From Firmicutes bacterium UBA2203 (GTDB taxonomy: Bacteria > Bacillota > Desulfotomaculia > Desulfotomaculales > Nap2-2B): a stretch of 64,000 bases of DNA. Position 1 is the first letter of the stretch; each line of letters begins with the position of its first letter. The notes under the pieces are model-generated. The model saw nothing but the letters and a program-made list of their open reading frames with translations, did no database searches and was not told the DNA's origin. The DNA is taken from contig DCUX01000008.1 in NCBI GenBank assembly GCA_002327235.1, forward strand, positions 62,845 to 126,844. The letters are read 5' to 3'. Below are positions 144 to 54,747 of the stretch, piece after piece. Position numbers and translations under genes: made by a program.

Positions 144-163
144 ATAATCACCTTTCCATAAAT

Positions 164-823: not shown

Positions 824-844
824 CCTTTACCACTCCTTCGTAAA

Positions 845-874: not shown

Positions 875-886
875 CAGTTTTATTTT

Positions 887-1239: not shown

Positions 1240-1361
1240 GTTTGTTTATAACCCGTAAATTCTAGGTTCAGGTTATGGATAAATTGCAAGTTATAATATA
1301 TTTTCGGGTATTGTTAGATAAAATAAATTATTTAGTCGAATATAATCGTATTTAACCATAG

Positions 1362-2138: not shown

Positions 2139-2184
2139 TATACCTTCCTTTATATGGACAAACAGCAGGTTTCCTATTTTCCGG

Positions 2185-8845: not shown

Positions 8846-8949
8846 AAAAAAGAAAGGGACGAGTTAAAATAAAATATATTAATAAGATTTGGTTAATAGG
8901 GTGGTTATTTTTTTTAATTACCCTATTACCTGCAGGAGTTTCAAAGGCA

Positions 8950-36815: not shown

Positions 36816-36875
36816 CAAAGGATAATGAAAATCCCAGGATTTTCGGATGAAATCAATTGTTCCTGGAAGGATTGG
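36816..36875 (+). other. Copy B of the conserved 37-nt block (partner at 7301-7376), between spoIIIAD and spoIIIAE
   Basis: CAAAGGATAATGAAAATCCCAGGATTTTCGGATGAAA followed by TGTTCCTGGAAGGATTGG. It could encode MKIPGFSDEINCSWKDWKRWS. Confidence 0.7.
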
Positions 36876-36880
36876 AAAAG

Positions 36881-38083: not shown

Positions 38084-38115
38084 AAAAAAGACAACCGGAA
38101 GGAAGGGCTATTTAA

Positions 38116-38730: not shown

Positions 38731-38736
38731 TTTAAG

Positions 38737-40101: not shown

Positions 40102-40575
40102 GTGACTGAAAAAACTTGGGCCAGCTTTATTTTATCCTTATTGTTACAAGATTTTCCTGAAAGCCTAGTAATAACAATGTTTGTCTTTAGTTTTTTAAAC
40201 CGGCGCCTGCGGGATAAGAAAGTTCTGTACGCGGCCCTGTTACAAACCATTACTAATTTAGTCCGCTTACTACCAATTGCTTTTGGGGTCCACTCGGTAA
40301 TTTTAATTATTACCTTAGCCTTTTATACCCGGCTGTTTACCAAGGCGCCGCTAAGTAAAATTTTTTTGGCCGTTTTAATTAGTTTTGCCCTTATTGCTTT
40401 AGCAGAATTAGCTTATACTAAACCATTTTTGTCCCTAACGGGTTTATCATACGAAAAAGCCTTTACTAGTCCTTTTTTAAGGGCCGCCTTTGCCTTACCT
40501 TACGAAATAATTTTAATGGGCATAGCTTTAGGGAAGAACTGTTACAACCATAAAAAAGGCTGTCTTATTAATTAA
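40102..40575 (+). CDS. Hypothetical polytopic membrane protein immediately upstream of agrB
   Basis: 157 aa, 4-5 predicted TM helices. GTG start with poor SD (start uncertain). No family recognised. Confidence 0.45.
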   Translation: MTEKTWASFILSLLLQDFPESLVITMFVFSFLNRRLRDKKVLYAALLQTITNLVRLLPIAFGVHSVILIITLAFYTRLFTKAPLSKIFLAVLISFALIALAELAYTKPFLSLTGLSYEKAFTSPFLRAAFALPYEIILMGIALGKNCYNHKKGCLIN

Positions 40576-40600: not shown

Positions 40601-41254
40601 TTGCTTAAATTTAATTTTAATAAAAGTACGGCGGCTTATTTAAAAACAAAATTAAATTTAACGCCGGACGAGGAAGAGGTGGCCCGGTACGGACTGCAAG
40701 TTATTGTTTATACGTTTACCAGCTTTATAACCATTTGTTTGATGGGCTGGCTTCTGGGCTGCTTTTGGACCACTTTAGCGGTTTGTATAACGGGCGGTTT
40801 CCTGCGTCTTTTTACCGGGGGGGCGCACAGCAATTCTCCTTTAACCTGTACCTTGCTGGGCATGGTCATGGTCCCCTTGTTAGGAAAAATAGCCGCCCTT
40901 ACCGCTCCTTTTTTTACTCCCCAAAGCCTGTCTTTAATAGTTGCCCCGGGTCTTATCCTGTCTTTCATTATTATTTGGCGCCTGGCTCCGGTAGATTCAC
41001 CGGCTAAACCAATTACCTTACTGGAGCAGCGCAAAAAACTACGTCTTTTAGCTATCGCGGCGGTTCTTTTACTCACCTCAGGGCAGGCCTTGCTTTTAAT
41101 CAAAGGACAGGCCCTGACGGTAGTTTTAGCCTTAAGTTTGGGTCTGTGGTGGCAAGCCTTCACTCTAACCCAAGCCGGGCATCGGTTTGCCACCTTTACG
41201 GATAAATTTAAATTAAGAAAGGAGGGAAGAAAAGATGAAGCGTCTGTACTATAA
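40601..41254 (+). CDS. agrB: AgrB-family accessory gene regulator B (AgrD-processing membrane peptidase)
   Basis: 217 aa. N-terminal ...EEVARYGLQVI... and RLFTGGAHSNSPLTCTL (AgrB GGxH...C catalytic context), polytopic. Confidence 0.85.
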   Translation: MLKFNFNKSTAAYLKTKLNLTPDEEEVARYGLQVIVYTFTSFITICLMGWLLGCFWTTLAVCITGGFLRLFTGGAHSNSPLTCTLLGMVMVPLLGKIAALTAPFFTPQSLSLIVAPGLILSFIIIWRLAPVDSPAKPITLLEQRKKLRLLAIAAVLLLTSGQALLLIKGQALTVVLALSLGLWWQAFTLTQAGHRFATFTDKFKLRKEGRKDEASVL

Positions 41255-41366
41255 GCTTTTACCCGTTCTTTTTAGCGGTCTGGTGGTTATTGCCTGTGGC
41301 AGTATAAAGCCGGCTTGTGCGGTATGGTGGTACCAGCCTGAGGTGCCCAAAGCCTTAAGGAAATAA
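41235..41366 (+). CDS. agrD: AgrD-like autoinducing peptide precursor (43 aa; not in the ORF track)
   Basis: MKRLYYKLLPVLFSGLVVIACGSIKPACAVWWYQPEVPKALRK. It has an amphipathic leader, a Cys-X4 core (CAVWW) and the conserved acidic/proline tail (QPEVPKAL). GGAGGG SD lies 8 nt upstream. Overlaps the agrB 3' end. Confidence 0.75.
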   Translation: MKRLYYKLLPVLFSGLVVIACGSIKPACAVWWYQPEVPKALRK

Positions 41367-41380: not shown

Positions 41381-41567
41381 GTAACTACTCAGGCACAAAG
41401 GGGCAAAGGCACATAGGCACAAAGTTTAAAGGAATACAATCGGAATACAGGACACAACCTGTCAAAATACCGCTTTGTTAACATCTTATAGGAACTTAAG
41501 CAACTCATTATCTCCAGATTCTCTTGCCCTTGGTGTTGTGTGTCTTTGTGCCTAGCTGAGTAGTTAC
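41381..41567 (+). mobile_element. MITE-like repeat, copy 2 (187 bp)
   Basis: GTAACTACTCAGGCACAAAGGGGCAAAGGCACATAGGCACAAAG ... CTTTGTGCCTAGCTGAGTAGTTAC. Begins 15 nt after the agrD stop. Confidence 0.8.
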
Positions 41568-41601
41568 GGAAAAATTAACTTGGTCAACGGGAGAATTAAA
41601 G

Positions 41602-43320
41602 ATGCACGGCTGGGAAGAAAAAAGAGCCCGCGAAATAAAAGAATATATTCTAAACAGTCAGGTCATTAGTCTTTTAATTTTTGCAATGATTATCTTTAGC
41701 TTTTATAACTTAAAACTAGGAGAAAATATAACAAATTTTTCAAAAGGAAGTATTGCTCTTTTTGTCCTTTGTATTGTGGTTATTGTTTACGTTACCCGCC
41801 AAATTCTCCCTAAAATTACCTTACTTAATCAAGCAAAAATAGACGAAATATTGCTTATCGGCCTTATTTTTCCTCTGACCTTTGCCTTTCTTTATTTTAG
41901 TAAGGATTTTTTTGGGGCTAAGGTGCTGATAGTCGTGCCGGTAATGATTACCGCAACAGCTTTTGGTAGTTACTGGGGTACTGGAGGGGCTGTTATGGCC
42001 AGTGCCCTTTTATTTTTTTTGGATTATTTAATTTTCCACCGCTTGCCCCCCGATGTTTTCCAAACTAACCTAATTGTAAGCAGTGTAACCATCCTCTCGG
42101 CCTGGCTTATTGGCGGACTCATGGGAGTAGAAAGAAAAACCCAGCAAGAATTGGTTAAAATGGCCGACTATGATTACTTAACCGGTTTGTACAACCACCG
42201 CTACCTGCAGGAAAAGCTGGCCTCCTTCTTGCCTGAAACAAGCCCGGTCGCTAAAAATAACCCCTCTTCTGCCACGCCAAAGAAGGCCGCCCCCGGGAGC
42301 GGTAAGCTAACCCTGGTTTTATTCGATATTAACCAGTTTAAGTATTACAACACCCTTTGGGGCTATCAAAAAGGTGATGAATTTTTAGCCGCTATGGGCA
42401 AGTTATTGCTGGATGAGGTTAAAAACCCTGCTTACGTTGCCCGGTACGGGGGCGACGAGTTTATCCTGGTTTTACCAGAAACGGATAAGCAGGCCGCTTT
42501 GCCCTTAGCCCATGATTTAATAGAAAAAATGACCACCGCGGTCACCTCTTGCTTACCGGAAGAAGAAAGGGCAAAATGTTTAAAGCCCCTTACCATATCC
42601 GTGGGGATGGCCGGTTACCCGGTAGACGGAAAAGCAGTTTTACCTTTAATCAGAGCCGCCGAAGATGACTTATTTAGAATAAAGTACAGTCTGGATAAAG
42701 CCTACCTTTATAAATCGGTCTTAAGTGAAATCAGCGCCCTAAAAATAAAAGACGCTTATCCTGCCCTACAGGCTTTTGTAGCCCTGATTAACGCCCGGGA
42801 CCGGTATACTTTTGGGCACTCGGAAAGGGTGATGTCTTACGCCGTAGCCCTGGGAGAAAAACTGGCCCTTTCCGAAGAAGAAATAGATATCTTGCGTTAC
42901 GGAGCCTACCTGCACGATATAGGTAAAATTGAAATTGAAGCCTCCGTTTTAAATAAAGAAGGAGCATTAGATAAAGCCGAATGGGAAACAATGAAAAAAC
43001 ATCCCGTTTGGGGCAATGAGATTGTTCAAATGATGGTTGCCTTAAATGAAATAGGGCCGGTTATCCGTTCCCACCACGAAAACTACGACGGTTCGGGCTA
43101 CCCTGACGGCCTGAAAGAAGAAAATATTCCTTTTTTGGCCCGTATTCTACGCCTGGCCGACAGTTTTGACGCCATGATCACCGACCGACCTTACCGGAAA
43201 GCTTTGGAATTTTCTGAAGCTTGTTTGGAATTAAAAAGGCACGCCGGCACTTTTTACGACCCCCGCCTGGTAAAACCTTTCCTGGTTGCGGTTAGGGGGG
43301 TTTACAAAAAAACTTCGTAA
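41602..43320 (+). CDS. Polytopic membrane protein with GGDEF and HD-GYP domains
   Basis: 572 aa. About 6 TM helices, then ARYGGDEF (GGDEF), then HSERV...LHDIGKI...HHENYDGSGYPDGL (HD-GYP). Confidence 0.9.
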   Translation: MHGWEEKRAREIKEYILNSQVISLLIFAMIIFSFYNLKLGENITNFSKGSIALFVLCIVVIVYVTRQILPKITLLNQAKIDEILLIGLIFPLTFAFLYFSKDFFGAKVLIVVPVMITATAFGSYWGTGGAVMASALLFFLDYLIFHRLPPDVFQTNLIVSSVTILSAWLIGGLMGVERKTQQELVKMADYDYLTGLYNHRYLQEKLASFLPETSPVAKNNPSSATPKKAAPGSGKLTLVLFDINQFKYYNTLWGYQKGDEFLAAMGKLLLDEVKNPAYVARYGGDEFILVLPETDKQAALPLAHDLIEKMTTAVTSCLPEEERAKCLKPLTISVGMAGYPVDGKAVLPLIRAAEDDLFRIKYSLDKAYLYKSVLSEISALKIKDAYPALQAFVALINARDRYTFGHSERVMSYAVALGEKLALSEEEIDILRYGAYLHDIGKIEIEASVLNKEGALDKAEWETMKKHPVWGNEIVQMMVALNEIGPVIRSHHENYDGSGYPDGLKEENIPFLARILRLADSFDAMITDRPYRKALEFSEACLELKRHAGTFYDPRLVKPFLVAVRGVYKKTS

Positions 43321-43429: not shown

Positions 43430-44116
43430 ATGCCAGAAATTAACTTCATGGTTTTTTGCCCTAACCAAATGGTCCGTCAAGCATTGGGAAATTTATTTAG
43501 TCAGAATGATACATTTAACATCCTTATGGAAACCGCTGTTTTTGAAGAACTATTAGCCGTGGGAAAAAACAATCAGCCGGAGATTTTACTTTGGGCTAAC
43601 TCTTATAAAGAAAAGGCAATCGGAAACATGGCCAGTTTTAAAAAAAACTGTCCCTTAACCTCCATAATTTACCTGGCTGATAATACTGATAATGAGGAGT
43701 TGGCCAAACTGCCTGAAATCTTAAAGGCCGGAGCGGACGGATGTCTTTCGCTGAGAATGCTCCCCCGGGACTTAATAAAAACTATGGAGATAATTATCCT
43801 GCAAAAGTATATCTGCTTATCAGCCTTCCTTAAATCTCAGTTGCTCAATATCCCGTTAAATATATACGTAAATTATGAAAACGAAGAAAAAACAAAAAAC
43901 CTTCCTGAAGAAAAAGAAAAGTTAACTCCCCGGGAAAAAGAAATTCTACATCTTTTGGCTCAAAACTGTTCCAACCCGGAAATTGCGGCCCGGCTGTTTG
44001 TCAGTGAAGCAACGGTAAAAACCCACGTCAGCAGAATTTTAGCCAAATTAAAGGCAAAAAACCGCGCCCAGGCCGTGGCAGCCGCTTTAAACAAAGGAAT
44101 TATAGAGAAACTATGA
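43430..44116 (+). CDS. LuxR/GerE-type HTH regulator with degenerate receiver-like N-domain
   Basis: C-terminal LTPREKEILHLLAQNCSNPEIAARLFVSEATVKTHVSRIL. The N-domain has a REC-like layout but lacks the acidic pocket (FMVFCPNQ) and the phospho-Asp (PEILLWANS). Confidence 0.8.
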   Translation: MPEINFMVFCPNQMVRQALGNLFSQNDTFNILMETAVFEELLAVGKNNQPEILLWANSYKEKAIGNMASFKKNCPLTSIIYLADNTDNEELAKLPEILKAGADGCLSLRMLPRDLIKTMEIIILQKYICLSAFLKSQLLNIPLNIYVNYENEEKTKNLPEEKEKLTPREKEILHLLAQNCSNPEIAARLFVSEATVKTHVSRILAKLKAKNRAQAVAAALNKGIIEKL

Positions 44117-44117
44117 G

Positions 44118-44259
44118 GAGCAAGGGCACAGAGGCACAGAGGCACAGAGGCACAGAGGGAAATGAAACGTATAGAGATATGCCGCCTGTCCGCCTGTCCG
44201 CCTGTCTGTCAAAAACTTTGTGCCTTTGTGCCTTTGCCCCTTTGTGCCTGAGTATTTAC
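44118..44259. mobile_element. MITE-like repeat, copy 3, with internal micro-repeats
   Basis: GGCACAGAG x4 (44125-44160) and CGCCTGTC x3, then CTTTGTGCCTTTGTGCCTTTGCCCCTTTGTGCCTGAGTATTTAC. Starts 2 nt after the regulator stop. It generates the spurious ORF 44113-44316. Confidence 0.75.
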
Positions 44260-44515
44260 TATAATATTAATGGCCATATAAAATTCATACTAAAGTATGA
44301 TTGCAATAAATGCTAGGTTATGCTAAAGTTTTGCTAAATTTAACTTTTTAACCAAGGTTTCTGTTTCGAAAAAGGCAATCTGCAAGAAAATAAAAAGCGG
44401 AGCGCAAAGCAAAGGACCCTTAGGGGAAGTATGCTTGGGTAAGCCTGGCTGCCGAAGAACAGAAAAATTTTTTCTGTTGCTTCGGCTTAATTTTTTAAAA
44501 AAGGAGCGGAGGAAG

Positions 44516-45184
44516 ATGGCGGAGGACTTCGTAGCTTTTTGGCATGAAGAGGCCAACAAAATGCTGGTGGGAAACATACTACTATCTTCCGATAGGGGCA
44601 AAAATAAAGCCGTATATGATTTTGCCCGGGGTGAAAATTTTTCCTCAAAGCTAAAGAAATTTAAAATTAAGGCAATTATTTACCCTATAAAAGAGCCGGT
44701 TAATTTAGATTTTTTAAAACAGCTAAAAGAAACCCATTCCAAGGCCCTATTAATTGGCCTGATTGACCAGAATTATCCCCTTGACCATAACGCTACAAAC
44801 CTCTTCAGCCAATTTGATTGCCTCCTGCCTTCCACCATTTTACCCAATCAATTAACCAAAATAGTTGCTTTAATCCTAAAAGGTAATCTATGTATCCCAA
44901 GGTTCTTACTAAAAAGCGCGCAAAAAGCCTCAAAGGAAGGACAGGCTTTAAAAAAACCGGGACCGGAAAGCAAAAATGATAAAAATAGTTTTTCTTTAAC
45001 CACCCGGGAAGCTGAAATCTTTCAATTGGTTAGTAAGGGTTATTCCAATAATGAAATTGCCCAAGAACTGTTTTTAAGTCTTTCTACCGTAAAATCCCAC
45101 ATCTACCGCATTTTTCGTAAATCATCCTTTACCAATCGTGTGCAAACGATCATTTATCAGTACCAAAAAGGAGGTTATCTTTAA
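44516..45184 (+). CDS. Second LuxR/GerE-type HTH regulator with degenerate receiver-like N-domain
   Basis: C-terminal LTTREAEIFQLVSKGYSNNEIAQELFLSLSTVKSHIYRIF. No DD pocket or phospho-Asp recognisable. ATG 44516 follows AAGGAGCGGAGG. Confidence 0.8.
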   Translation: MAEDFVAFWHEEANKMLVGNILLSSDRGKNKAVYDFARGENFSSKLKKFKIKAIIYPIKEPVNLDFLKQLKETHSKALLIGLIDQNYPLDHNATNLFSQFDCLLPSTILPNQLTKIVALILKGNLCIPRFLLKSAQKASKEGQALKKPGPESKNDKNSFSLTTREAEIFQLVSKGYSNNEIAQELFLSLSTVKSHIYRIFRKSSFTNRVQTIIYQYQKGGYL

Positions 45185-45229
45185 AATATTTAGGTAAATA
45201 GGCTAAATTTAGAGAAAAAGGTGAGTTAT

Positions 45230-45643
45230 ATGCAGCGTATAAGACTAATGTTAATAAATTCTCCTGCTTTAAAATCTATTTTTACTAATTATAATATTTT
45301 TGAAATTGTTACGGCCGTAGAAGCAAATGATTTAAATCTTGCTCAGGATGAAGCCCGGCGTTTACAGCCCGACGCTATTATTTATAGGGCCGGGAACAAA
45401 GAAAAAATACCCCTGGAACTGCTCAGTAAAATAAAAGAGGTCTGCCCTTTATCCCTAATGATTATTTTTGCTACTTCAGAAACTCCTGAATGGGTGGCGG
45501 CGGCCCTTAAAGCGGGGGCGGACAGCTACCTTTTAGATGAAAACATGCTGCCGGCGGAAATAGCCGAAGCGGTAGAACTCATCTGCCGGGCTAAAGTTTG
45601 CTTTTTCCCGGCCTCGGTCAAAGAATTATTTAAACAAATTTAA
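45230..45643 (+). CDS. Stand-alone receiver-like domain protein (degenerate)
   Basis: 137 aa. REC-like beta/alpha pattern (..LQPDAIIYRAG.., ..MIIFATSE.., ..ALKAGADSYLL) without the N-terminal acidic pair. Confidence 0.5.
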   Translation: MQRIRLMLINSPALKSIFTNYNIFEIVTAVEANDLNLAQDEARRLQPDAIIYRAGNKEKIPLELLSKIKEVCPLSLMIIFATSETPEWVAAALKAGADSYLLDENMLPAEIAEAVELICRAKVCFFPASVKELFKQI

Positions 45644-45685: not shown

Positions 45686-46690
45686 ATGAGAGGAAAAGGC
45701 TTTGTTTTTATGCTTTTAAGGTTATTAATTTTAGCCGCCGCGGCCTTTGGCCTGGCCGGCTGGTCCTACGCCATGGATATTAACTGCAATGTTCAGAATA
45801 CAGATGTTGTCTGGGAGCTTAGGGTAATTCCTGACCTTGAGCTGGTTAATTATTCTTATATGGGCAAAGATGCAGGAAATGACTGGACCTGTGACCCCGG
45901 TCTTGAAAATATCCGCCAGATAGGTGAAGACAAAGGTTCTACTACCGGCGAGTTTAAAGATGAAAACGGCGATAGTAAGCTGGATTTATTAACCGTAAAG
46001 GTTATTAACATTTATCCCTGCTACTATAACGAAGTGAGTATGAAAGTATACAACGGGGGAAGTGAACCAATTACCATGCCTCAACCGGTATTGCACTGGC
46101 TGGGTCAGGAAATTCCCCTGGAAGATGGAATGGTGACTACGGTTTATGACCCGGAAGGAAAGGCGGTAATGGAGCTTTGTTGGTTAAACAATACCGGTAA
46201 GGTGCTTTACCCCGGCAAAAAGTTTGAGGAAGTTTTTGAGTTTCACTTTATCGCCCCGCCGGCAACACCCCCTGAAATTACCGGCCTTACCCCCGGTTAC
46301 TGGAAAAACTGGCGCAACCACTATACGGCCGAGCAATTTAATGCCCTTTTAAAGTCAACCATTGCTCCAGATATAGCTACGGCAGATAAAATCTTTAGTC
46401 ATTACAGTGCTGCCCCGGGTAAAGAAATAACCATCCTCAAGGCTCACCTGTTAGCCGCCCAGCTAACCCTGAACCTGACCAAAATGCCTGAACTGCCTAA
46501 CCCTGACGGGGCCTGTCTGACTGAAAGCAGCAAGGTAGAATGGCAAGGAGGGGTAATAACCGTTGGCGAGGCCGTAAAGAGAGCGCTGGATATTTTAGCC
46601 AATCCTGCGGCCTATACCCGGGAGCAGATTTTGCAGGTAAAGGACCTGTTGGATATGATAAACAACCTAAAAATTCCTACTAAAGGATGA
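45686..46690 (+). CDS. Secreted two-domain protein: TasA-like/GNDWTCD jelly-roll domain plus helical C-domain
   Basis: Signal peptide ending AFGLAGWSYA (SipW-cognate-like). Paralogous to 50730-51398 over YMGKDAGNDWTCD...DENGDSKLDL...YPCYYNE...ELCWLNN...FEEVFEFH. Confidence 0.6.
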   Translation: MRGKGFVFMLLRLLILAAAAFGLAGWSYAMDINCNVQNTDVVWELRVIPDLELVNYSYMGKDAGNDWTCDPGLENIRQIGEDKGSTTGEFKDENGDSKLDLLTVKVINIYPCYYNEVSMKVYNGGSEPITMPQPVLHWLGQEIPLEDGMVTTVYDPEGKAVMELCWLNNTGKVLYPGKKFEEVFEFHFIAPPATPPEITGLTPGYWKNWRNHYTAEQFNALLKSTIAPDIATADKIFSHYSAAPGKEITILKAHLLAAQLTLNLTKMPELPNPDGACLTESSKVEWQGGVITVGEAVKRALDILANPAAYTREQILQVKDLLDMINNLKIPTKG

Positions 46691-46918
46691 TTATGATTTA
46701 GATTTTTCATACCAATGACTGATAGGAAAACATTTTTATTTTTTAGAAAATCTAAGGGAAGAAGTGGCAAATTTTATTAGGAGGTGAAAAAAGTTCTAAG
46801 AAACAAAAAATGTTTCTAAAAGGTGGTGATGATTAAACAGGGATTTATCAAAAGAAATCCCCTTCGCGCATTATAAGTGTGGTTATTATTACCATAAAAT
46901 CTCAAAGGAGGAGAAAAA

Positions 46919-48901
46919 ATGACCAAAAAATTTGGCAGTTTGTTTCTTTGTTTAATGCTCATCATTTCAGCCACAATAATGATTATGCCTTCCCCGGCGG
47001 CTAACGCCAATTGCACCGGCCCAAATTGCCGGACTTATACCCTGGACGCTGATTTTGACGAAGGAGTACTTAACGGCGTAGAACATGAAACTGTCCATGA
47101 CCAACTGCAGTTGGCTAAAAAGCCATTTGCCTTGCCTTTTATCTGGGTGCCCAATTCAAACGAGGGGACAATCTCTAAAGTTTCCACGGAACCACCCTAT
47201 AATGAATTGGGACGCTACCGGGTTACCCCTCCGGGTTTACCCGCCAATGGCAGCCCTTCCCGCACAACAGTTGACCAGCAGGGCAATTGTTGGGTAGGTA
47301 ACAGGCAGGCCGGAACAGTGGTCAAGGTGGGTCTTTTGGAAGCCGGAAACTGGATAGACAGAAACGGCAACGGTGTTTGCGACACATCCCGGGACATTAA
47401 CAATGATGGAAATATTACCGGCGGTGAACTTTTACCCTGGGGACAGGATGAGTGCGTTCTTTATGAAGTGGTCTTAATTGAAGGCCATCAAGGTACTTAT
47501 GTTCCTGGCACATACCCCGGGCCGTACGATACAGATTACTGGGGTACATCACCAAGGGGACTGGCCGTTGACCAAAATAACAACGTCTGGGCAGGAACCT
47601 GGTCATCCCATAAGTTTTACCATATCAACAGCGCTACAGGACAGATTATCAATGCTGATACCATGGATGTTGCCCCTCATAGTTCTTACGGGGTGGTAAT
47701 GGATAAGTACGGCATGCTCTGGTCGGCCCAATTAGGCACAGAAATTCTTAGAATTAACCCGGCAAACCCGGCGGATAAAATAACGATCCCTCTTAACCAC
47801 ACATACGGAATTGGCCTTGATTATCAGGACCACTTGTTTGTTGGGGGAAGCAACAAACTTACCAAAATTAACATTACCACCGGTACAGTACTATGGACAA
47901 AAGGGGCAAGTACTTCACAGGGTGTTTGCTGCACCAGCGATAATGATGTTTGGGTTGATGCGGGAGATAATTGGGTATACCGGTATGATAATGAGGGTAA
48001 CAATAAAGCACAATTTAATGTGGGCAACAACCCGACGGGAGTGGCCGTTGATGCCGCAGGCAAAGTCTGGGCCTGTAATGTCGGGGATGAATATATTACC
48101 CGGATAAACCCGGCTGACAATACAATAATGGCTCAAAAACAAATAATCGGCGGCTACCATTACAGTTACAGCGACATGACCGGCATGGTTTCAGGGTCAA
48201 TCACGGTTAAAAAAGGGACCTGGGAGGTCGTCTATGACAGCGGGGTTAATGATACTCCATGGGGCACAATTTGTTGGAACAGCTCTGAACCCCCCGGGAC
48301 ATCCATCACCGTTCAGGCCATGAGTTCAAATGACGGCGTTAACTATTCACCGGCCGAAAATGCAACCAACGGCATTCCTTTAAGCACCACGCCAAACGGG
48401 CGGTATTTAAAAGCGATTGTTACTTTTACCATAACCAGTGGCGACATTTCCCCCATTCTCTATGATTTAACCATCTGTTCAAAAGCACCGCCAAGCGGCC
48501 GCTGGGAGATTTATAATTACAAGCAAAAGGATACGGGAAATGACTGGACCTGTGATGAAAACTTTGAAAACATTGTCCAGTTGCCTACAAACACCGCCGA
48601 CACGACAATTACCCTGGAAGACACTAATGGCGACGGCAAAAACGACAAGGCCAATATTACCGTGAAAAACGGCTTTCCTACGTATTATAACTCGATTGTC
48701 CTGGATGTAAAAAACATTGGGACCCTTCCCATAAAACTGGCGAACGTAAAAATCATTGCTCCTGATCAAATCCAGTACATGATGCTGGAAAGCCCCAGCA
48801 GCATCATTAAACCAGGCAAGAGAAGAGCCATCGGCATAGACTTCAGGGTTTGGGACGGTGCCCCGCCGCAGGGGGATTACACCATTACCGTTTCTTTGTA
48901 A
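46919..48901 (+). CDS. Secreted beta-propeller protein fused to a C-terminal GNDWTCD domain
   Basis: 660 aa. Sec signal (PAANA). Repeated G.(A/V).D....(V/L)W blades (GLAVDQNNNVWAG, GVVMDKYGMLWSA, GVAVDAAGKVWAC). The last ~140 aa are a close paralogue of 51664-52185. Confidence 0.7.
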   Translation: MTKKFGSLFLCLMLIISATIMIMPSPAANANCTGPNCRTYTLDADFDEGVLNGVEHETVHDQLQLAKKPFALPFIWVPNSNEGTISKVSTEPPYNELGRYRVTPPGLPANGSPSRTTVDQQGNCWVGNRQAGTVVKVGLLEAGNWIDRNGNGVCDTSRDINNDGNITGGELLPWGQDECVLYEVVLIEGHQGTYVPGTYPGPYDTDYWGTSPRGLAVDQNNNVWAGTWSSHKFYHINSATGQIINADTMDVAPHSSYGVVMDKYGMLWSAQLGTEILRINPANPADKITIPLNHTYGIGLDYQDHLFVGGSNKLTKINITTGTVLWTKGASTSQGVCCTSDNDVWVDAGDNWVYRYDNEGNNKAQFNVGNNPTGVAVDAAGKVWACNVGDEYITRINPADNTIMAQKQIIGGYHYSYSDMTGMVSGSITVKKGTWEVVYDSGVNDTPWGTICWNSSEPPGTSITVQAMSSNDGVNYSPAENATNGIPLSTTPNGRYLKAIVTFTITSGDISPILYDLTICSKAPPSGRWEIYNYKQKDTGNDWTCDENFENIVQLPTNTADTTITLEDTNGDGKNDKANITVKNGFPTYYNSIVLDVKNIGTLPIKLANVKIIAPDQIQYMMLESPSSIIKPGKRRAIGIDFRVWDGAPPQGDYTITVSL

Positions 48902-48914
48902 AGCCCGGCGGGTA

Positions 48915-48948
48915 AAAAACAGGGGGTTTTTTAAGCTCCCTGTTTTTT
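48915..48948 (+). terminator. Intrinsic terminator after the propeller gene
   Basis: AAAAACAGGG / CCCTGTTTTT 10-bp stem running into a T tract. Confidence 0.7.
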
Positions 48949-49282
48949 ACCAAATTTCCTACTAAAGTATGATTTTTAAAAGCCATTTTTCATACCAACG
49001 GCGGATAGATAAAAGTTTTTACTTGTTTTAAATTTAAGTTAAGGCCAATCAAACTAAAAAATGTAAAAAGGAGCCCTGATGATTTAAAGGAGGTGGGAGA
49101 AAAGCCCGGGGCAAAGAGGCAGGCCGGCAAGATTAGAAAGATAAGGCCAGATTGTCTTTGGGGCGTAAAAAGGGGAGAAGTTTTAGCGGAGCGGAGGAAA
49201 GGGTACTATTAAAATGAACGGGTTGGAAAAAAATCTAAAAAGTAAAAAATTAAAAAATTAAAAAGAAAGGGGATTAAACCTA

Positions 49283-49930
49283 ATGAAGAGGAAAACAGTA
49301 GTTATCTGTCTGATTGCCATGTTTGCCTTAGCGGCTATGGGCTTTGGCTTTGCCAAATGGTCAGACAGCGTGTCAATTGCCGCCACAGTGGAAACAGGTA
49401 AAGTATGCGTAGGTATTTTAGATGCAGGTGTTCTTGATCCAGGAGCCGACCCGCAACAAACTCCCGGACAAAACCCGGAAGGTAAAGATGTAGCCAAAAC
49501 TACCAGCACAAATATTGACAATAAATGCGAAAATGCTGGTGTGCAGTACTTCGCAAAAATTGAAGAGAAGATTGAAAATGCTTATCCCTGGTACAAAACC
49601 GGCAGCACAATTAAAATGGCTAACTGCGGCACCATCCCGGTAAAAATTGAAAAAATTGAGGCTGTATGGGATGACCCCGATGGAATAGCTGACTTTTTTA
49701 ACGTTGCAGAGTGGACACTTACAGATAATGGAGTAGTTGTTGGAACAGGCACTGGCCTTGATTCTCTTATGACTGCGTTAATTAAATACCAGCTTCATCC
49801 GGACCACGTTTTAACCCTTGATATTACAGGCTATTTTGCCGAAGAAGTCGGCACTGATATTATGCCAGAAGGCGCGAGCGCTACTGCAACAGTCACCGTT
49901 ACCGCCAGCCAGTGGAACGAAGTACCGTAA
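49283..49930 (+). CDS. TasA/camelysin-family protein with SipW-cognate-type signal peptide
   Basis: 215 aa. LAAMGFGFAKWSDSVS (compare TasA ..GGGTWAAFND), ENAYPWY..ANCGTIPVKI, and C-terminal VTASQWNEV (compare TasA FEATQWNG). Confidence 0.75.
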   Translation: MKRKTVVICLIAMFALAAMGFGFAKWSDSVSIAATVETGKVCVGILDAGVLDPGADPQQTPGQNPEGKDVAKTTSTNIDNKCENAGVQYFAKIEEKIENAYPWYKTGSTIKMANCGTIPVKIEKIEAVWDDPDGIADFFNVAEWTLTDNGVVVGTGTGLDSLMTALIKYQLHPDHVLTLDITGYFAEEVGTDIMPEGASATATVTVTASQWNEVP

Positions 49931-49950
49931 AAATCTTCTGCGGACAAAAT

Positions 49951-49982
49951 GTTAGTTGGGGCCTTTAAAGGCCCCAACTAAC
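49951..49982 (+). terminator. 13-bp perfect GC-rich hairpin without T tract after the first TasA-like gene
   Basis: GTTAGTTGGGGCC-TTTAAA-GGCCCCAACTAAC. Confidence 0.5.
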
Positions 49983-50051
49983 AAGCTTAAAAAAGTGGTT
50001 ATTAAACTAAAAAGAGTAAGCACGTTTTAAAGGGAAAAAGGAAGGTAAACC

Positions 50052-50702
50052 ATGAAGAAAATTTTGCTTGTATTCTTTAGCGGAATATTTGCCTTAGCGG
50101 CCATGGGCTTTGGTTTTGCCGGGTGGTCTGATGCCGTAAGCATGGAAAAGCATTTGGAAAGCGGCACGCTGGCCGTCGGCTTGAGGGGCCTGGAAGTGAA
50201 TGATTACGGCCCTGACCCCCGCCATCAGTGGTACCAGCCGGCCGAAGACATGCCGGCCGATATGGGAAGCATTTTCAATGTGGAGGGGCCGTATCTTTTT
50301 GACCTGGGGGGTACAGGTTACGCTGAAGAGGTAAGCATAAATATTTTTAATGCCTATCCCGGCTATGCCCCGGCCAGCACATTGGAAATAGCCAACGGGG
50401 GTACGGTGCCGGCCAAAATAGAAAGCCTTTCCATAAGCGATGAAAACAACCCGGCGGTAAATATCCAGCCGGCCGGCTGGGTCCTTACCCTACCTGAGGG
50501 AATGCCGCTTTCCGGTCAGGACTTGAGTTCCTTGCAGGAAGCAATAAAGGGTACGGTAATCGACCCGGGGCAAAAAATGCGCCTGGAATGGCAATTTAAT
50601 ATCTTCGGCGCCGGAATGTCCGGCTTTTATACGAGCAAAATTAAAGTTAACTATAGTGTCTGGAATGAGGTTAATTCCTGGCGTAAGTTAAGTTATGATT
50701 AA
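50052..50702 (+). CDS. TasA/camelysin-family protein with SipW-cognate-type signal peptide
   Basis: 216 aa. LAAMGFGFAGWSDAVS, NAYPGY..ANGGTVPAKI, C-terminal NYSVWNEV. Confidence 0.75.
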   Translation: MKKILLVFFSGIFALAAMGFGFAGWSDAVSMEKHLESGTLAVGLRGLEVNDYGPDPRHQWYQPAEDMPADMGSIFNVEGPYLFDLGGTGYAEEVSINIFNAYPGYAPASTLEIANGGTVPAKIESLSISDENNPAVNIQPAGWVLTLPEGMPLSGQDLSSLQEAIKGTVIDPGQKMRLEWQFNIFGAGMSGFYTSKIKVNYSVWNEVNSWRKLSYD

Positions 50703-50729
50703 AAATTTTAAGGAAAGGAGGGCTCTTAA

Positions 50730-51398
50730 TTGAAAAGAACCGCAGTGGTATGTGTAATTGCTTTGCTGGCTCTGGCTATCATGGGTTTTGGCTTTGCCAA
50801 ATGGTCGGACAACGTGTCCATAAGTGCGGCGGCCCAAAGCGGTAAGTTGAGCTGGGGATTTGTGCCTGGTTCAGATATGGGTAAGGATGCCGGTCCCGAC
50901 TGGACCTGCGACACCTGCCTGGAAAATGTACGGCCGTCCCCGGAAGGCAAGGACGTGGGTTCCACCACAACAGGGCTTAGCGACACAAACGGGGACGGCG
51001 TGCTTGATTTGTTCACCGTGGATGTTAAAAATGCTTATCCCTGCTACTACAACGAATTAAGCGCCAAGGTGCAAAACTTTGGCACCATTCCGGTGATCAT
51101 TCAAATAGCAAAATTAACCTGGATGGGCCACACTTTAAACCTGGAAGACGGTACGGTCTATTGGCTGGGCAAAGACGGTCAGGTTATTGAACAGCCAGAA
51201 GACCCGCCAGACCTTCACGTAGGAGATAACTGGGTAATGGAGTTTTGTTGGATGAACAATGCTGGACATCAGCAGCATCCCGGCCAAAAGTTTGAAGAAT
51301 CATTTGAATTTCATGTCCTCCAGCCGGCGGAACAAAGTACTACTTATACATTTAGCATTGGCGTAGAAGCCATCCAGTGGAATGAAAGTACAATTTAA
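50730..51398 (+). CDS. TasA/camelysin-family protein with GNDWTCD-type insertion and SipW-cognate-type signal peptide
   Basis: 222 aa, TTG start after AAGGAAAGGAGG. LAIMGFGFAKWSDNVS, DAGPDWTCDTC, DTNGDGVLDL, NAYPCYYNE, C-terminal VEAIQWNES. Confidence 0.75.
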   Translation: MKRTAVVCVIALLALAIMGFGFAKWSDNVSISAAAQSGKLSWGFVPGSDMGKDAGPDWTCDTCLENVRPSPEGKDVGSTTTGLSDTNGDGVLDLFTVDVKNAYPCYYNELSAKVQNFGTIPVIIQIAKLTWMGHTLNLEDGTVYWLGKDGQVIEQPEDPPDLHVGDNWVMEFCWMNNAGHQQHPGQKFEESFEFHVLQPAEQSTTYTFSIGVEAIQWNESTI

Positions 51399-51436
51399 AT
51401 TTAAAGAAAAAAGCTAAAGATAGATTTATTATGCAG

Positions 51437-51463
51437 GGCAGGTGAAAAACCTGCCTTTTTTTT
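51437..51463 (+). terminator. Intrinsic terminator
   Basis: GGCAGGT-GAAAA-ACCTGCC followed by T8. Confidence 0.8.
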
Positions 51464-51663
51464 GTAACTACATAAATATAAAAAATTAGCTTGACACCTA
51501 AAAAAATAATTGATATGTTTATGGAAAAATAGCCCTAAATATGTTTAAATTTATCCTGAAAGAGGTAGTAAAGAGGACAATTCCCAAAGGAAAAAACAGA
51601 AAGTATAGGAGGTGGGCTGTTTTTTAATAAAAATTAATATGGAAAAGGGGTTTTATATTTAAA

Positions 51664-52185
51664 ATGAAACCAAAAATATTATTTATTCTGGTCATGGTTG
51701 CCTTGCTGGCCTTAGGCCTAACCGGCGCAGCCTGGGCGGCCGCGGCCAATGGTCAAAACTGGATGATCTGCTCCAACATGCAGCAGGATACCGGAAACGA
51801 CTGGGTCTGTGATGAAAACTTTGAAAACATCCAGCAATTAGCAACGAATACCGCTCAAACAATTATTAGTTATCAGGATAACAACGGAGATGGAAAAAAC
51901 GATACGGCAATAGTCACGGTTGAAAAAGGATTTCCTTCCTATTATAATTCTTTAAGTCTGACGGTAAAAAATATCGGCAATATCCCGATAAGTATGAGCG
52001 AGGTAGTAATTGAAAACCTTAATCCGGAAAATCTTGAAATCAGAATACTGGAAAGTCCGCAGGGCACTATTAATCCGGGCAAAAGAAAGTCCATCGGGAT
52101 TGAATTCCGGGTTTCTGGTGCACCGGGAGAAGCAAACGGCTCATATAGCTTTATGGTTTATTTAAATCAAATTATGCCGGGCTGA
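51664..52185 (+). CDS. Small secreted GNDWVCD-domain protein (paralogue of the propeller protein C-domain)
   Basis: 173 aa. Signal peptide ..GLTGAAWAAAA. QQDTGNDWVCDENFENIQQL...DNNGDGKNDT...FPSYYNS...KNIGNIPI. Confidence 0.65.
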   Translation: MKPKILFILVMVALLALGLTGAAWAAAANGQNWMICSNMQQDTGNDWVCDENFENIQQLATNTAQTIISYQDNNGDGKNDTAIVTVEKGFPSYYNSLSLTVKNIGNIPISMSEVVIENLNPENLEIRILESPQGTINPGKRKSIGIEFRVSGAPGEANGSYSFMVYLNQIMPG

Positions 52186-52211
52186 AAATACTTAAAAAAA
52201 CCAAGTGAAGT

Positions 52212-52270
52212 AAGAAGAGGACTTAAAGGGGGGTTTTAATTTTTCCGGTTAAGTCCTCTTCTTTTAGTTT
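52212..52270 (+). terminator. Long-loop hairpin plus T tract after 51664-52185
   Basis: AAGAAGAGGACTT (52212-52224) pairs with AAGTCCTCTTCTT (52251-52263), followed by TTAGTTTTT. Confidence 0.5.
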
Positions 52271-52362
52271 TTAAAAAGCAGGTCTTTAAGTTTTTTTGTT
52301 TAAATGTTATATTTTGTTTGCAAGGAAATTTTTTTGCCCTCAGGCCAATTAAGAGGTGAAGA

Positions 52363-53535
52363 ATGCTTCGACTGAAGATACCCCGGGACTGGCTTTTGGT
52401 TTTATTTCTGGTAATAATTGTTTGTCTATTTTTAAATCTAGCTTTACCCTGTTTTTTAAGCGGATTTTGGGGCACTTACGTGGTGCAGCCTGTTATCTGG
52501 GGATTACTGGTTTTTTTTATTTTGCGCCTGCCCAGGTATAAAGGGGCAGGGAAGCTGCGTCTGCGGAGCCTGTTAATTAAGCTTGCCGCCGGAATAGCCA
52601 TTTTTCAAATTTACCTTACCCTTATTGCCGGTTTTTTTGAAAAGTTTGGCCGAAGCCCAAATTCCTTTACTCCCAAAGGGATAGTAATTAATCTGGTCTT
52701 TGTGGCCACAAGTTTAGCTGGGATAGAGCTAAGCCGGGCTTGGTTAATTAACCGCCGGGCGCGAAAACCCTCAACCCTCCTACCTGTTTTTATCGCCCTG
52801 CTTTTTACTTATTTTTCCCTGCCGCCGGGCCAGATTCCTAAAATAAGCAGCAGCCTGGAAGTAGTAACTGAGTTTTTAGGGTCAACTTTTTTACCTACTT
52901 TTATGGAAAACTTGCTGGCCTCTTTTCTGGCCTTATGGGGAGGAGCGCTGCCGGCCTTGACTTACCGGGGGATAATCCAGGCTTTTAACTGGTTTTGTCC
53001 TGTTTTGCCCGACTTAAACTGGTTAATGAAGGCCTTTACGGGAATAATTGTACCGGTGGTAGGCCTGGTAATCATCCAGGAAATTTCCCTGGCTAAATCC
53101 CATCTTGCCCGGTACCGGAGACAAACGGGTAAGGGACTAACCGGATGGTTGATTACCAGTATCGGAATGGTAATCATGTTCTGGTTTTTCTTAGGCGTTT
53201 TTCCCGTTCACCCCACCGTAATTTTCACCGGCAGCATGCGGCCGGCCATAGAAGTGGGTGATGTGGTTATTGTGGCCAGGGTAAATCCTAAACTTCTGAA
53301 GGTGGGCGATGTTGTTCAGTTCCGCCTCAAGGAAAAAACTATTCCCACGGTGCACCGGATTATTGATACTCGCCGCGAAGGAAATAAATTACTTTACATT
53401 ACCAAAGGGGACGCCAACAATTATCCGGATACGGAACCGGTTCACCCGGAACAGGTGACAGGCAAGCAAGTTTTTATTATCCCCAAGGCAGGCTGGGCCT
53501 CTATTGCCGTTAAACAGTTGTTATCTAAAGGTTAA
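52363..53535 (+). CDS. SipW-type (ER/archaeal-type) signal peptidase I fused to a ~265-aa polytopic N-terminal domain
   Basis: The C-terminal 120 aa carry TGSMRPAIEVGDVV, TVHRII, ITKGDANNYPD (compare B. subtilis SipW SGSMEP..THRI..TKGDNN). It is preceded by about 8 TM helices of unknown family. Confidence 0.85.
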   Translation: MLRLKIPRDWLLVLFLVIIVCLFLNLALPCFLSGFWGTYVVQPVIWGLLVFFILRLPRYKGAGKLRLRSLLIKLAAGIAIFQIYLTLIAGFFEKFGRSPNSFTPKGIVINLVFVATSLAGIELSRAWLINRRARKPSTLLPVFIALLFTYFSLPPGQIPKISSSLEVVTEFLGSTFLPTFMENLLASFLALWGGALPALTYRGIIQAFNWFCPVLPDLNWLMKAFTGIIVPVVGLVIIQEISLAKSHLARYRRQTGKGLTGWLITSIGMVIMFWFFLGVFPVHPTVIFTGSMRPAIEVGDVVIVARVNPKLLKVGDVVQFRLKEKTIPTVHRIIDTRREGNKLLYITKGDANNYPDTEPVHPEQVTGKQVFIIPKAGWASIAVKQLLSKG

Positions 53536-53652
53536 GTAACTACTCAGGCACAAAGGGGCAAAGGCACAGAGGCACAAAGTTTTTTGCCAGATTTACATAT
53601 CTTTATACGCTTTCATTTCTCTTTGGACCTTCGTGCCTACCTGAATAGTTAC
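53536..53652 (+). mobile_element. MITE-like repeat, copy 4 (117 bp)
   Basis: GTAACTACTCAGGCACAAAGGGGCAAAGGCACAGAGGCACAAAG ... CCTGAATAGTTAC. Begins at the nucleotide after the sipW-like stop codon. Confidence 0.85.
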
Positions 53653-53688
53653 AAGGTTAAATCTAAAATACCAGGAGGGAATGTTTAA

Positions 53689-54747
53689 ATGCAAGTTAAA
53701 AAAAAGCAGCTGGGGAAAAAAATTCGTCAGGCACTGCTAGGAGCCTTATTGGTTTTATTTGTCGCTTCTATCTACACCCTGTACTTTTTTTACCATAAAT
53801 CCACGGTAATAGAAAAGAGCATCCCCGCTTACCGTTACCAACAAAAAGGAGAGCTTGCCTACCTGGTAAAACTTAAACCAAACAACATTTACCCGGAGCC
53901 AATCCTTGGTCCAGGAAAAACTTATTTTACCAAACTAATTGACCAGATTAACCTTTCCTTCAACTACCGGTTTAGCGGGGATAAAGCCGCGTCCTTAAAA
54001 GGGGCATACAATATTGTGGCCACCGTTGAGTCTCCGGAAATGTGGCGTAAGGATTTTGTCCTCGTTCCGCAAACGGGACTTACCACCGAAGGGAAAACAT
54101 TAACCTTTAATAAAAATTTTTCCCTTAACCTGGTTTCCTTTCACGAGTTTTTAAAAATGATTAATGAAGAATCAGGGGTAAGCGCCCGGGAACCAAAATT
54201 AATCATTAAAGCAAATGTTTATCTTAGGGCCGCCTCTAAAGAGGGGCTGGTAAATGAAGGCTTAGCTCCCACTATGATTATTCCCCTGACCTCGGGCGAA
54301 TTTAAAATTGGGGGGGAAAATTCAACTCAAAAAAGCGGTTCTCTTTCTAAAACAGTGGTAGTAACCGACCCGGCCGTAAAAAAGAAAAGAACAGCCGCTT
54401 TAATTCCCGCGCCGATGCTAGGTCTGCTTTTAATATTATTTTTCTTTTTTACCGAAAACAAATTGGGGGAAGTTGACGAAAGAAAAAAGGTTATTGATTT
54501 AATTTGGAGAAAGTACGGGGAGCGCCTGGTGAAAGTCCAGGAAAAGGTTTTACCGACAGAAAAACTAAATATCATTCCCCTTAACTCCCTGGAGGACCTG
54601 GTTAAAGTGGCCGATGAGCTGGGCAAACCGGTTATATACCAGGAAAAGGCCAACCCCGGGGATTTCCCTGTCTTGTATGTCTTTGAAAGTTCAATAGCTT
54701 TTAAGTATCAACCAGGTACGGATAAGGATATTGGTCCAGGTCATTAA
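53689..54747 (+). CDS. Two-TM membrane protein of unknown function, last gene of the TasA/SipW cluster
   Basis: 352 aa. TM1 at residues ~15-35, a ~220-aa extracytoplasmic region, TM2 AALIPAPMLGLLLILFFFF, and a ~95-aa cytoplasmic tail. I suspect but cannot verify DUF5305-type. Confidence 0.5.
   Translation: MQVKKKQLGKKIRQALLGALLVLFVASIYTLYFFYHKSTVIEKSIPAYRYQQKGELAYLVKLKPNNIYPEPILGPGKTYFTKLIDQINLSFNYRFSGDKAASLKGAYNIVATVESPEMWRKDFVLVPQTGLTTEGKTLTFNKNFSLNLVSFHEFLKMINEESGVSAREPKLIIKANVYLRAASKEGLVNEGLAPTMIIPLTSGEFKIGGENSTQKSGSLSKTVVVTDPAVKKKRTAALIPAPMLGLLLILFFFFTENKLGEVDERKKVIDLIWRKYGERLVKVQEKVLPTEKLNIIPLNSLEDLVKVADELGKPVIYQEKANPGDFPVLYVFESSIAFKYQPGTDKDIGPGH

Follow-up and report, generated by a model that had tools for sequence, protein, structure and literature searches.

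What kind of surface structure is encoded by a run of eight genes in the genome of Firmicutes bacterium UBA2203, an uncultured anaerobic spore former, in which six genes for secreted paralogs are followed by one for a signal peptidase and one for a DUF5305 protein? The run lies in a stretch of 64,000 nucleotides of contig DCUX01000008.1 (assembly GCA_002327235.1). This whole stretch is called the window here, coordinates are positions in it, and the features of the locus are all on the + strand. A first-pass annotation, made from the letters of the sequence, had proposed a multi-subunit TasA/camelysin-like fiber locus with a dedicated peptidase of the SipW type. Profile matches to the archaeal protein AbpX, together with a TIGR02228 match of the peptidase, uphold a multi-subunit, donor-strand-type fiber locus of the TasA superfamily with a dedicated SipW/archaeal-type peptidase. 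Overall, the locus probably encodes an AbpX-type fiber that would be assembled outside the cell by chaperone-free donor-strand complementation.

Six secreted paralogs of the AbpX family

All eight open reading frames (ORFs) of the first-pass annotation were recovered at the same positions. The secreted paralogs span 45686–52185 and comprise A (45686-46690, 334 amino acids (aa)), B (46919-48901, 660 aa), C (49283-49930, 215 aa), D (50052-50702, 216 aa), E (50730-51398, 222 aa) and F (51664-52185, 173 aa), followed by the peptidase G (52363-53535, 390 aa) and the DUF5305 protein H (53689-54747, 352 aa). An ALA.MGFGFA.WSD N-terminus, an NAYP.Y...N.GT.P core and a C-terminal WNE are invariant in C, D and E, and A, E, F and the last 150 residues of B share, with little or no variation, the motifs D.G.DW.CD..EN and D.NGD...D; every motif first quoted for these two sets was found in the sequences. 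We built a profile from database homologs of C (alignment A3, 85 sequences, row 1 being mature C), which matched exactly A to F among 250 window ORFs. The E-values were about 1e-38 to 1e-68 for C, D and E (7e-38 for D), the scores of C and E being partly self-matches because the alignment contains E (as P0034), and 7e-24 for A, 1.5e-18 for residues 529-625 of B and 4e-15 for F, three proteins that lie outside the profile. Paralogy of A to F is far beyond chance and, with one N-terminal hydrophobic segment in each, the proposed row of six secreted paralogs stands. The locus is identical to that on contig DHHK01000020.1 of GCA_002403265.1 and recurs in three JGI metagenomes, 3300001580, 3300035454 and 3300035640.

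Sequence comparison connects these proteins to AbpX, the subunit of a solved fiber of Pyrodictium abyssi. A profile of only three sequences, C, D and E, matched the solved AbpX chain 9sj2_C at E=2.2e-6, and the A3 profile matched it at E=1.4e-12 over residues 1-161 of 163. With C as query, phmmer returned 89 proteins, whose sources are Bacillota, Desulfurococcales and Pyrodictiaceae, and in a database of 5.8e9 sequences C matched UniProt A0A2R7Y7S4 (E=9.6e-10) and E0SRZ6 (E=4.2e-11). The former is the 'AbpX' of Zestosphaera and the latter an abpX-locus protein of Ignisphaera (bioRxiv 10.64898/2026.01.04.697558, hereafter the AbpX preprint). Mature C, D and E are acidic, with pI values of 4.24, 4.40 and 4.24 and Asp+Glu contents of 14.7%, 12.5% and 14.1%, respectively, as expected for AbpX-like proteins (a pI of about 4 and about 15% Asp+Glu). 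The family is large, with 4230 clusters at 50% identity reaching E<=1e-3. In one member, P0314 (561 aa), about 350 inserted residues interrupt the domain, with profile positions 2-58 at residues 5-61 and positions 66-203 at residues 412-561, a further way of mounting cargo on the AbpX fold.

Structure prediction points the same way at the level of fold. The AlphaFold2 (AF2) model of mature C has a predicted local distance difference test (pLDDT) score of 93.6 and is an all-beta β-sandwich in which residues 1-18 carry no secondary structure; the N-terminal extension is reported to be likewise unstructured in the AbpX monomer (AbpX preprint). A Foldseek search of the C model against the PDB returned the TasA fiber 8aur_A first (probability 1.0, TM 0.52, E 1e-3), followed by the Sulfolobus Saci_0406 thread, CfaB and CanA, all of which are donor-strand polymers. 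By fold, then, the six proteins are members of the TasA superfamily, and their sequences place them in the AbpX family. The TasA-like character originally ascribed to the locus is therefore borne out at the superfamily and fold level, by the Foldseek match to 8aur and by a β-sandwich with a free N-terminal strand, and does not extend to membership in Peptidase_M73.

Membership in the TasA/camelysin family proper was dropped, as none of A to F matched Pfam Peptidase_M73 (PF12389) at E<=0.1. The assignment of the signal peptides to the SipW-cognate class is likewise unsupported, with no match of C, D, E or the others of A to F to TIGR04088 at E<=0.1. Separately, one homolog, P0022, carries a TIGR04088 annotation at JGI. 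A PDB sequence search with the deep family profile found no TasA chain at E<=10. When the family profile was aligned by hhalign with an approximate TasA sequence, only the N-terminal 47 columns aligned, covering signal peptide and donor strand, at a probability of 50%. We consider it extremely improbable that the locus is a canonical Peptidase_M73 operon like tapA-sipW-tasA of Bacillus, with products that might be metalloproteases. Such an operon would fit the TasA fiber as best Foldseek match of C, the resemblance of motifs (signal peptide and the ...QWN... last strand) and the N-terminal hhalign alignment, but not the negative Peptidase_M73 and TIGR04088 searches for all six proteins, the missing TasA chain, the absence of a TapA-like gene, or a peptidase that falls under the SipW equivalog cut-off (65 versus 190 bits) and carries an extra domain of about eight transmembrane (TM) segments.

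Processing, subunit roles and gene order

AbpX of P. abyssi polymerizes without a chaperone by donor-strand complementation (AbpX preprint), and the residues concerned can be followed into the present proteins. We located the predicted cleavage site of C, D and E by aligning them with solved AbpX, whose mature N-terminus corresponds in C to a cut between GFGFA and KWSD. Positions 1-4 then read K-W-S-D in C, G-W-S-D in D and K-W-S-D in E versus Q-W-S-E in AbpX, with W2 and an acidic position 4 conserved in all three; the family as a whole conserves W2, D/E4 and G15 of the donor strand. We infer a pathway in which the six pre-proteins are exported by Sec, and G, probably with H, would cut C, D and E after GFGFA to release an N-terminal x-W-S-D strand with an aromatic clamp at position 2 and an acid at position 4. 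The exposed strand would insert into the open jelly-roll groove of the next subunit, with C as the repeating major subunit and D and E as conserved minor or adaptor classes; E carries both the DW.CD and the D.NGDG..D loops.

The proposed processing enzyme, G, is a type I signal peptidase (SPase I) of the archaeal/endoplasmic reticulum/SipW type with a C-terminal catalytic domain. It scored 93.4 bits against TIGR02228 (cut-off 51.85, 1.2e-26) and also matched Peptidase_S26, and its catalytic boxes, GSMRP (Ser) and TVHRI (His), are conserved in four orthologs. G is not the Bacillus SipW equivalog, given 65 bits against NF046067 with a cut-off of 190. Hydropathy and an alignment with three orthologs place about eight hydrophobic segments before the catalytic domain and one after it. 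The N-terminal domain of about eight TM segments (window 52363-53200, residues 1-280) is well conserved, with SFTP, ELSRAWLINR, FMENLLASFLALWGG and WFCPVLPD, and matched no Pfam family and no PDB chain. H is a DUF5305 protein (PF17231, 127.4 bits versus 29, 6.8e-37) with two TM segments at residues 16-34 and 236-254, and is a putative SPase accessory subunit. The first-pass description of a SipW-type peptidase fused to an 8-TM domain and followed by a two-TM protein thus agrees with the TIGR02228 match and hydropathy, the two-TM protein being DUF5305.

Two other loci bear on this pair. In a Desulfurococcales metagenome-assembled genome (MAG; L029, 8754-11093) a single open frame of about 780 aa, counted from stop to stop, unites multi-TM, SPase I and DUF5305 regions, which supports a functional partnership of peptidase and DUF5305, and a similar fusion occurs in Anaerolinea (AbpX preprint). 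The multi-TM peptidase of Syntrophaceticus schinkii (L007, 8925-10180) is apparently split into overlapping frames, 8925-9365 and 9302-10180, and may represent a frameshift or a pseudogene in the assembly of that isolate.

Among the secreted proteins, B is the putative tip. An ordinary AxA signal peptide precedes an NHL propeller/β-sandwich head (about residues 30-520), and the protein ends in an AbpX-like pilin domain (about 529-660). The head combines an NHL-type six-bladed propeller with a β-sandwich (Pfam SGL, 1e-13), and the PDB search returned the PknD/Pizza NHL propellers at 1e-24 to 7e-7. Aligned to AbpX, the pilin domain has gaps at all donor-strand columns; without a strand it could accept but not donate, and so would have to sit at one end of the polymer. 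B, the large propeller-bearing subunit of the first-pass annotation, indeed looks like an adhesin-type tip by its architecture, which recurs in the surveyed locus L004, and would sit at one end of the fiber with its propeller as the tip, analogous to FimH. The head module (window 47009-48478) is present in at least 794 database proteins at E<=1e-3, and among the 120 best listed, from both Bacteria and Archaea, identity is 48-64%. Its hosts include Brocadia, Methanosarcina, Methanoperedens, Patescibacteria and Asgard MAGs; in other proteins dockerin, cohesin, PKD and T9SS anchors are attached to it, and its annotation is often 'streptogramin lyase'. An AbpX domain accompanies it in two of the 120 best relatives listed.

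F is a stand-alone copy of the B pilin domain with a truncated N-terminal extension (AWAAAANGQ). It is closest to the B class, at 50-54% identity with the B-class domains of loci L003 and L004, and its strand is shortened, with seven donor-strand columns missing and with W2 and A4 at the key positions. F may be an alternative cap or a nucleator. A joins an AbpX-like jelly-roll, at about residues 25-195, to a C-terminal helical module at 197-328 (AF2 pLDDT 90), and its predicted mature N-terminus, GWSY, begins a full-length strand with W2 but Y4. The helical module (window 46274-46670, about 130 aa, GLTPGYWKNWRNHYT...) is 70% identical to P0361, and modules of this type occur at 50-70% identity on SpaA, SdrD_B, DUF7507 and prealbumin-fold surface proteins of other phyla. 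No match was found in the PDB sequence search or in Pfam. For the model of A, with its two domains, Foldseek found nothing convincing, the best local match being to the Ig-like domains of DsbD-alpha (E about 1e-2). In the proposed fiber A would carry this module as cargo.

The one pilin domain that lacks its strand, sensible only in a polar polymer, bears on another reading, in which the dedicated peptidase processes secreted or surface proteins that never polymerize and act as monomeric adhesins, matrix proteins or carriers of the propeller and helical modules. Cargo-type modules like those of A and B are indeed found elsewhere on non-polymeric stalks (SpaA, PKD, dockerin), and the models made here are of single chains. 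Full-length homology to a protein with a solved fiber structure, the family-wide conservation of W2, D/E4 and G15, and an N-terminal strand left unpaired in a confident monomer model nevertheless make the non-polymerizing reading quite improbable.

Gene order supports the division into subunit classes. We surveyed 35 loci, of which 27 came from one-genome-per-species contigs, four were reached via homologs and four are copies of the window's own locus. The contig search used a 16-sequence alignment; its best match was 44% identical, and the window's own genome was not among the matches. A core recurs in Bacteria and Archaea (Bacillota and Thermoproteota) and consists of one to three AbpX-like genes followed by genes for a peptidase of about 400 aa and for DUF5305; the last two are paired in most of the longer or complete loci. 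The minimal form, in Thermodesulfitimonas, has a C-class gene, the peptidase and DUF5305. Locus L003 runs from a regulator and a receiver through a tip protein (a Big-domain head on a B-class pilin) and C-, D- and E-class genes to the peptidase and DUF5305. Locus L004 starts with an HD-GYP protein and a GerE regulator, continues with C-, D-, E- and E-class genes, a propeller tip, the peptidase and DUF5305, and ends with a C-like subunit that has a hydrophobic and basic sorting tail, followed by a sortase.

Because C, D, E and B/F are kept in order in both L003 and L004, they represent conserved orthologous classes, as opposed to recent duplicates. The D-class orthologs take the same position in the two loci and the E orthologs are 59-60% identical. 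The heads of the tip proteins are interchangeable on the same comparison, with Big domains in L003 and a propeller in L004. The window locus corresponds to an L003-type core plus A and F, and its six AbpX-domain genes are the maximum among the surveyed loci, a number that L004 also reaches. Some 7 kb upstream of its AbpX locus, L003 has a separate cluster (1-3156) with a Peptidase_M73 gene, a 183-aa SipW-like peptidase and two secreted proteins of 353-354 aa; one genome can thus hold both TasA-type and AbpX-type systems.

Which class forms the bulk of the fiber is addressed by the minimal locus and by transcription signals. Consensus scans for promoters and terminators were at background frequency overall, and only individually strong hairpins were used. 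A terminator-like hairpin with a T-run follows B at 48916..48950; it was read from the sequence (cagggggttttttaagctccctg plus tttttt) and is not listed by the consensus scan. C then has a leader of 380 bp, and just after it lies a perfect 15-bp palindromic hairpin (49950..49983) with no U-tail on the + strand, possibly an mRNA stabilizer or an attenuator that sets an excess of major subunit. D and E end at an intrinsic terminator (51435..51464, a 9-bp GC-rich stem plus T7), and the consensus scan gave a promoter-like site upstream of F-G-H. We assign C as the major subunit with moderate confidence because it is the only class in the minimal locus and has a terminator-like hairpin before it, a long leader of its own and the 15-bp hairpin after it.

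There is also evidence for a different main repeating subunit, an E-class protein, with C accessory or proximal to the anchor. The E class is the best conserved (59-60% in L003 and L004 versus 42-57% for the C class), is duplicated in L004 and, like solved AbpX, keeps a Ca2+ loop (N87/D89/D93). We judge this arrangement unlikely, since the minimal Thermodesulfitimonas locus has a C-class gene and no other subunit class, C has its own long leader with a terminator before it and a strong hairpin after it, and the sortase-anchored subunit of L004 is C-like.

Possible calcium sites, regulation and the case for a fiber

In AbpX, three protomers bind the Ca2+ ion where strand meets groove: one contributes E4, the next D18, D46, D48 and E52, and a third E142 (AbpX preprint). 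We mapped these ligands onto A to F through the family profile. The residues found at D46/D48/E52 are N/D/D in A, B, E and F and G/T/E in D. The D.NGDG..D loop, first put forward as a calcium-binding guess, thereby aligns with an experimentally defined Ca2+ site. The distribution of the loop, kept in A, B, E and F and not in C and D, suggests that Ca2+ would clamp mainly those junctions where a D4-bearing donor strand enters a specialized subunit. Contacts between C subunits may be calcium-independent, or may use the acidic GPDPQ...EGKDV motif, which with QWNEVP forms an extra set of conserved motifs in the C clade.

Genes upstream of the locus suggest how its expression might be controlled, and those named in the first-pass annotation (an agr module, c-di-GMP turnover and pseudo-receiver regulators) were recovered with no significant Response_reg match. 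An AgrB-type peptide-processing membrane protein (40601..41254, +; Pfam AgrB PF04647, E=9.6e-39) is overlapped at its end by a 43-aa propeptide ORF (41235..41366, +; ...KPACAVWW/YQPEVPKALRK), which by inspection we take to be AgrD-like for its Cys+4 ring and charged EVPK.L tail. No AgrC/AgrA pair was seen beside this ORF. Before agrB, at 40102-40575, lies a 157-aa membrane protein without a Pfam match. A membrane-anchored GGDEF + HD-GYP (HD_5) protein for turnover of cyclic di-GMP (c-di-GMP) follows at 41602..43320 (+; GGDEF 3.8e-26, HD_5 3.6e-34).

Three regulators lead up to A. R1 (43430..44116, +) is a GerE/LuxR-type protein (GerE 4.5e-20) whose receiver-like N-domain gave no Response_reg match even at E<=5, and its orthologs head the syntenic loci L003 and L004. 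R2 (44516..45184, +) is a second GerE/LuxR regulator (GerE 8.2e-17) with a pseudo-receiver-like N-domain and no Response_reg match. R3 (45221..45643, +) is a stand-alone receiver-like protein of 140 aa that reached Response_reg only at E=0.034 (14.7 bits versus a cut-off of 30.2); its 130-aa ortholog in L003 carries Response_reg. By inspection, the acidic pocket and the phospho-acceptor Asp are absent from the receiver domains of all three. The leader of R2 contains a sub-threshold c-di-GMP-I-class riboswitch-like aptamer (44365..44457, +; matched best by a variant-class model, Rfam c-di-GMP-I-GGC, E=6e-4) and a terminator hairpin with a U-run (44451..44496, +; -21.5 kcal/mol, z=-4.6). The syntenic element of L003 (7098-7189) matches RF01051 (c-di-GMP-I, Rfam clan CL00126) at 36.2 versus a gathering score of 35. 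In both the window and L003 the 5' arm of the terminator (CCGAAG) is also the 3' end of the outer stem of the aptamer, an overlap that suggests a putative ON-switch expression platform. Expression of the fiber genes is probably tied to c-di-GMP, through this leader and the GGDEF/HD-GYP protein, and to the LuxR-type pseudo-receivers, and agrBD quorum sensing possibly also controls it.

About 700 bp upstream of the agr module is the spoIIIA operon, with spoIIIAE, AF, (AG) and AH at window 36857-39925, from which the host is taken to be an endospore-forming Firmicute. Its proximity raises the idea of a novel endospore appendage, with the fibers borne by the spore instead of the vegetative cell, and the failure to find a cell-wall anchor in the window would fit. 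We hold this to be very improbable: c-di-GMP, LuxR and agr regulators are typical of biofilm control, homologs occur in archaea that do not sporulate, the Pfam search gave no Ena or DUF3992 domains, and the adjacency of spoIIIA may be coincidence. An Ena (endospore appendage) identity was considered on account of the nearby spoIIIA operon and is unsupported by Pfam.

Several observations weigh against an AbpX-type fiber built mainly of C, besides the better conservation of the E class noted above. The Foldseek E-values of the C model are marginal (1e-3), and AbpX itself is absent from its matches. AF2 folds the N-terminal strand of A in cis, so that A may not donate its strand. At AbpX D46/D48/E52, C has A/V/A (A85/V87/A91), and D18 and E142 are conserved in none of A to F, which makes calcium dependence of the main polymer doubtful. 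The riboswitch-like element of the window scores 30.9 bits, below the Rfam gathering score of 59. Unlike many of the bacterial loci in the AbpX preprint, the window contains no LPXTG, sortase or SLH anchor by which the fiber would attach to the cell; a regular-expression search of all window ORFs for LPXTG signals and the sortase motif TLxTC gave nothing credible. With these points counted, the AbpX-type fiber is still the reading we favor. Though this is unlikely, the fiber might be a modular display scaffold rather than a plain matrix polymer, in which B and F (with no full strand) and A would mount interchangeable cargo heads on an AbpX polymer, Ca2+ would clamp only at specialized subunits, and the domain of about eight TM segments with DUF5305 would form a membrane assembly platform equivalent to an usher. 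The cargo of B would then be its propeller module, which is about 490 aa long and shows 55-62% identity across Bacteria and Archaea, and that of A the helical module.

A dispersed intergenic repeat was also noticed, at 41384-41568, 44113-44262 and 53537-53652 and, as single matches, near 33785 and 63385; the window has 12 matches where 0.7 would be expected. Inverted repeats (GTAACTACTCAGGCACAAAGG ... CCTTNGTGCCTANCTGANTAGTTAC) mark its termini, octamers (GGCACAGA/AGGCACAA) are repeated in tandem inside it in about four copies, and it resembles a miniature inverted-repeat transposable element (MITE) or a repetitive extragenic palindromic (REP)-type element. One copy lies between the genes for G and H.

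Relation to known systems

The heteropolymeric system was at first thought to be new, a view that the literature does not sustain. AbpX homologs are known in Bacillota and Chloroflexota, and bacterial abpX loci have been catalogued from sequence with minor subunits, tip proteins, a peptidase of about 10 TM segments, DUF5305 and c-di-GMP regulators, together with histidine kinases, diguanylate cyclases, HD-GYP proteins and SLH or LPXTG anchors; Table S3 lists loci of 7-10 genes in Thermacetogenium, Syntrophothermus and Heliobacterium (bioRxiv 10.64898/2026.01.04.697558, January 2026). The window locus fits that description gene for gene. Nor are several paralogs in a SipW operon without precedent, given the earlier C. 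perfringens sipW-bsaABCRSD (PMC7395162). As to function, the kind of locus is known, and its bacterial members are known from sequence only: the structural definition of AbpX-type fibers dates only from 2026 and comes from a single hyperthermophilic archaeon. The locus is an elaborate new example of an AbpX-type system, not a new class.

Its interest lies in classes that can be told apart within one locus: a major and two conserved minor subunits, a cap with a propeller tip, a cap-like copy that has no head, and a subunit that carries cargo. It thus offers a template for asking how a chaperone-free donor-strand polymer encodes subunit order, whether calcium sits at every junction or only at specialized ones, and what the multi-TM peptidase domain and DUF5305 do. 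The apparent riboswitch, the LuxR pseudo-receivers and agrBD give testable second-messenger and quorum links to matrix production in an uncultured anaerobic spore former.

One parallel is with chaperone-usher pili (type 1, FimH). These are alike in principle, an incomplete beta-sandwich being completed by the N-terminal strand of a neighbor, and in their two-domain tip adhesin, too, the pilin domain is without a donor strand. The window locus differs in having no periplasmic chaperone or usher, a Gram-positive-type envelope, a proposed self-assembly outside the cell and no detectable sequence relationship. The haloarchaeal Tafi system (TafA/TafC/TafE; PMC11821415, PMC12337348) belongs to a different sequence cluster, is found in haloarchaea and uses Tat export, as against the Sec-type signal peptides here.

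Among bacterial systems, C. perfringens sipW-bsaABCRSD (PMC7395162) shares a SipW homolog, several paralogs secreted as matrix proteins (BsaA as major, BsaB and BsaC as auxiliary proteins) and embedded regulators. By description it is set apart as a different TasA-like branch, in which intermolecular isopeptide bonds are reported to hold BsaA polymers together (PMC11580942). It has a two-component system where the window has pseudo-receiver LuxR proteins, and neither DUF5305 nor a multi-TM peptidase is reported for it. The B. subtilis tapA-sipW-tasA operon (PDB 8AUR; PMC9674648) has in common with the system proposed here a jelly-roll donor-strand subunit, a dedicated ER/archaeal-type signal peptidase in the operon and a biofilm matrix role, and it supplies the best structural match of the C model. 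In contrast to its one fiber protein plus TapA, the window has six subunit genes, no Peptidase_M73/TIGR04088 match, no TapA, and an extra domain of about eight TM segments on the peptidase in addition to DUF5305.

The closest relatives are the AbpX loci (P. abyssi, PDB 9SJ2/9RHP). They share the sequence family and the acidic proteins, a major subunit, AbpX-like minor subunits, a tip, an SPase I of about 10 TM segments and DUF5305 and, in Bacteria, c-di-GMP enzymes and transcription factors. AbpX of P. abyssi has the D46/D48/E52 calcium loop that the putative major subunit C does not, and is without the GPDPQ...EGKDV and QWNEVP motifs of the C clade. The window locus is further distinguished by the head-less copy of the tip pilin, by having no SLH, LPXTG or sortase anchor, and by its six AbpX-domain genes, NHL propeller tip and second cargo subunit with a helical module. 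Its remaining interest rests with how many and how clearly specialized its subunits are, with the propeller and helical modules carried as cargo, with a calcium loop kept in some subunits and not in others, and with the multi-TM domain of the peptidase.

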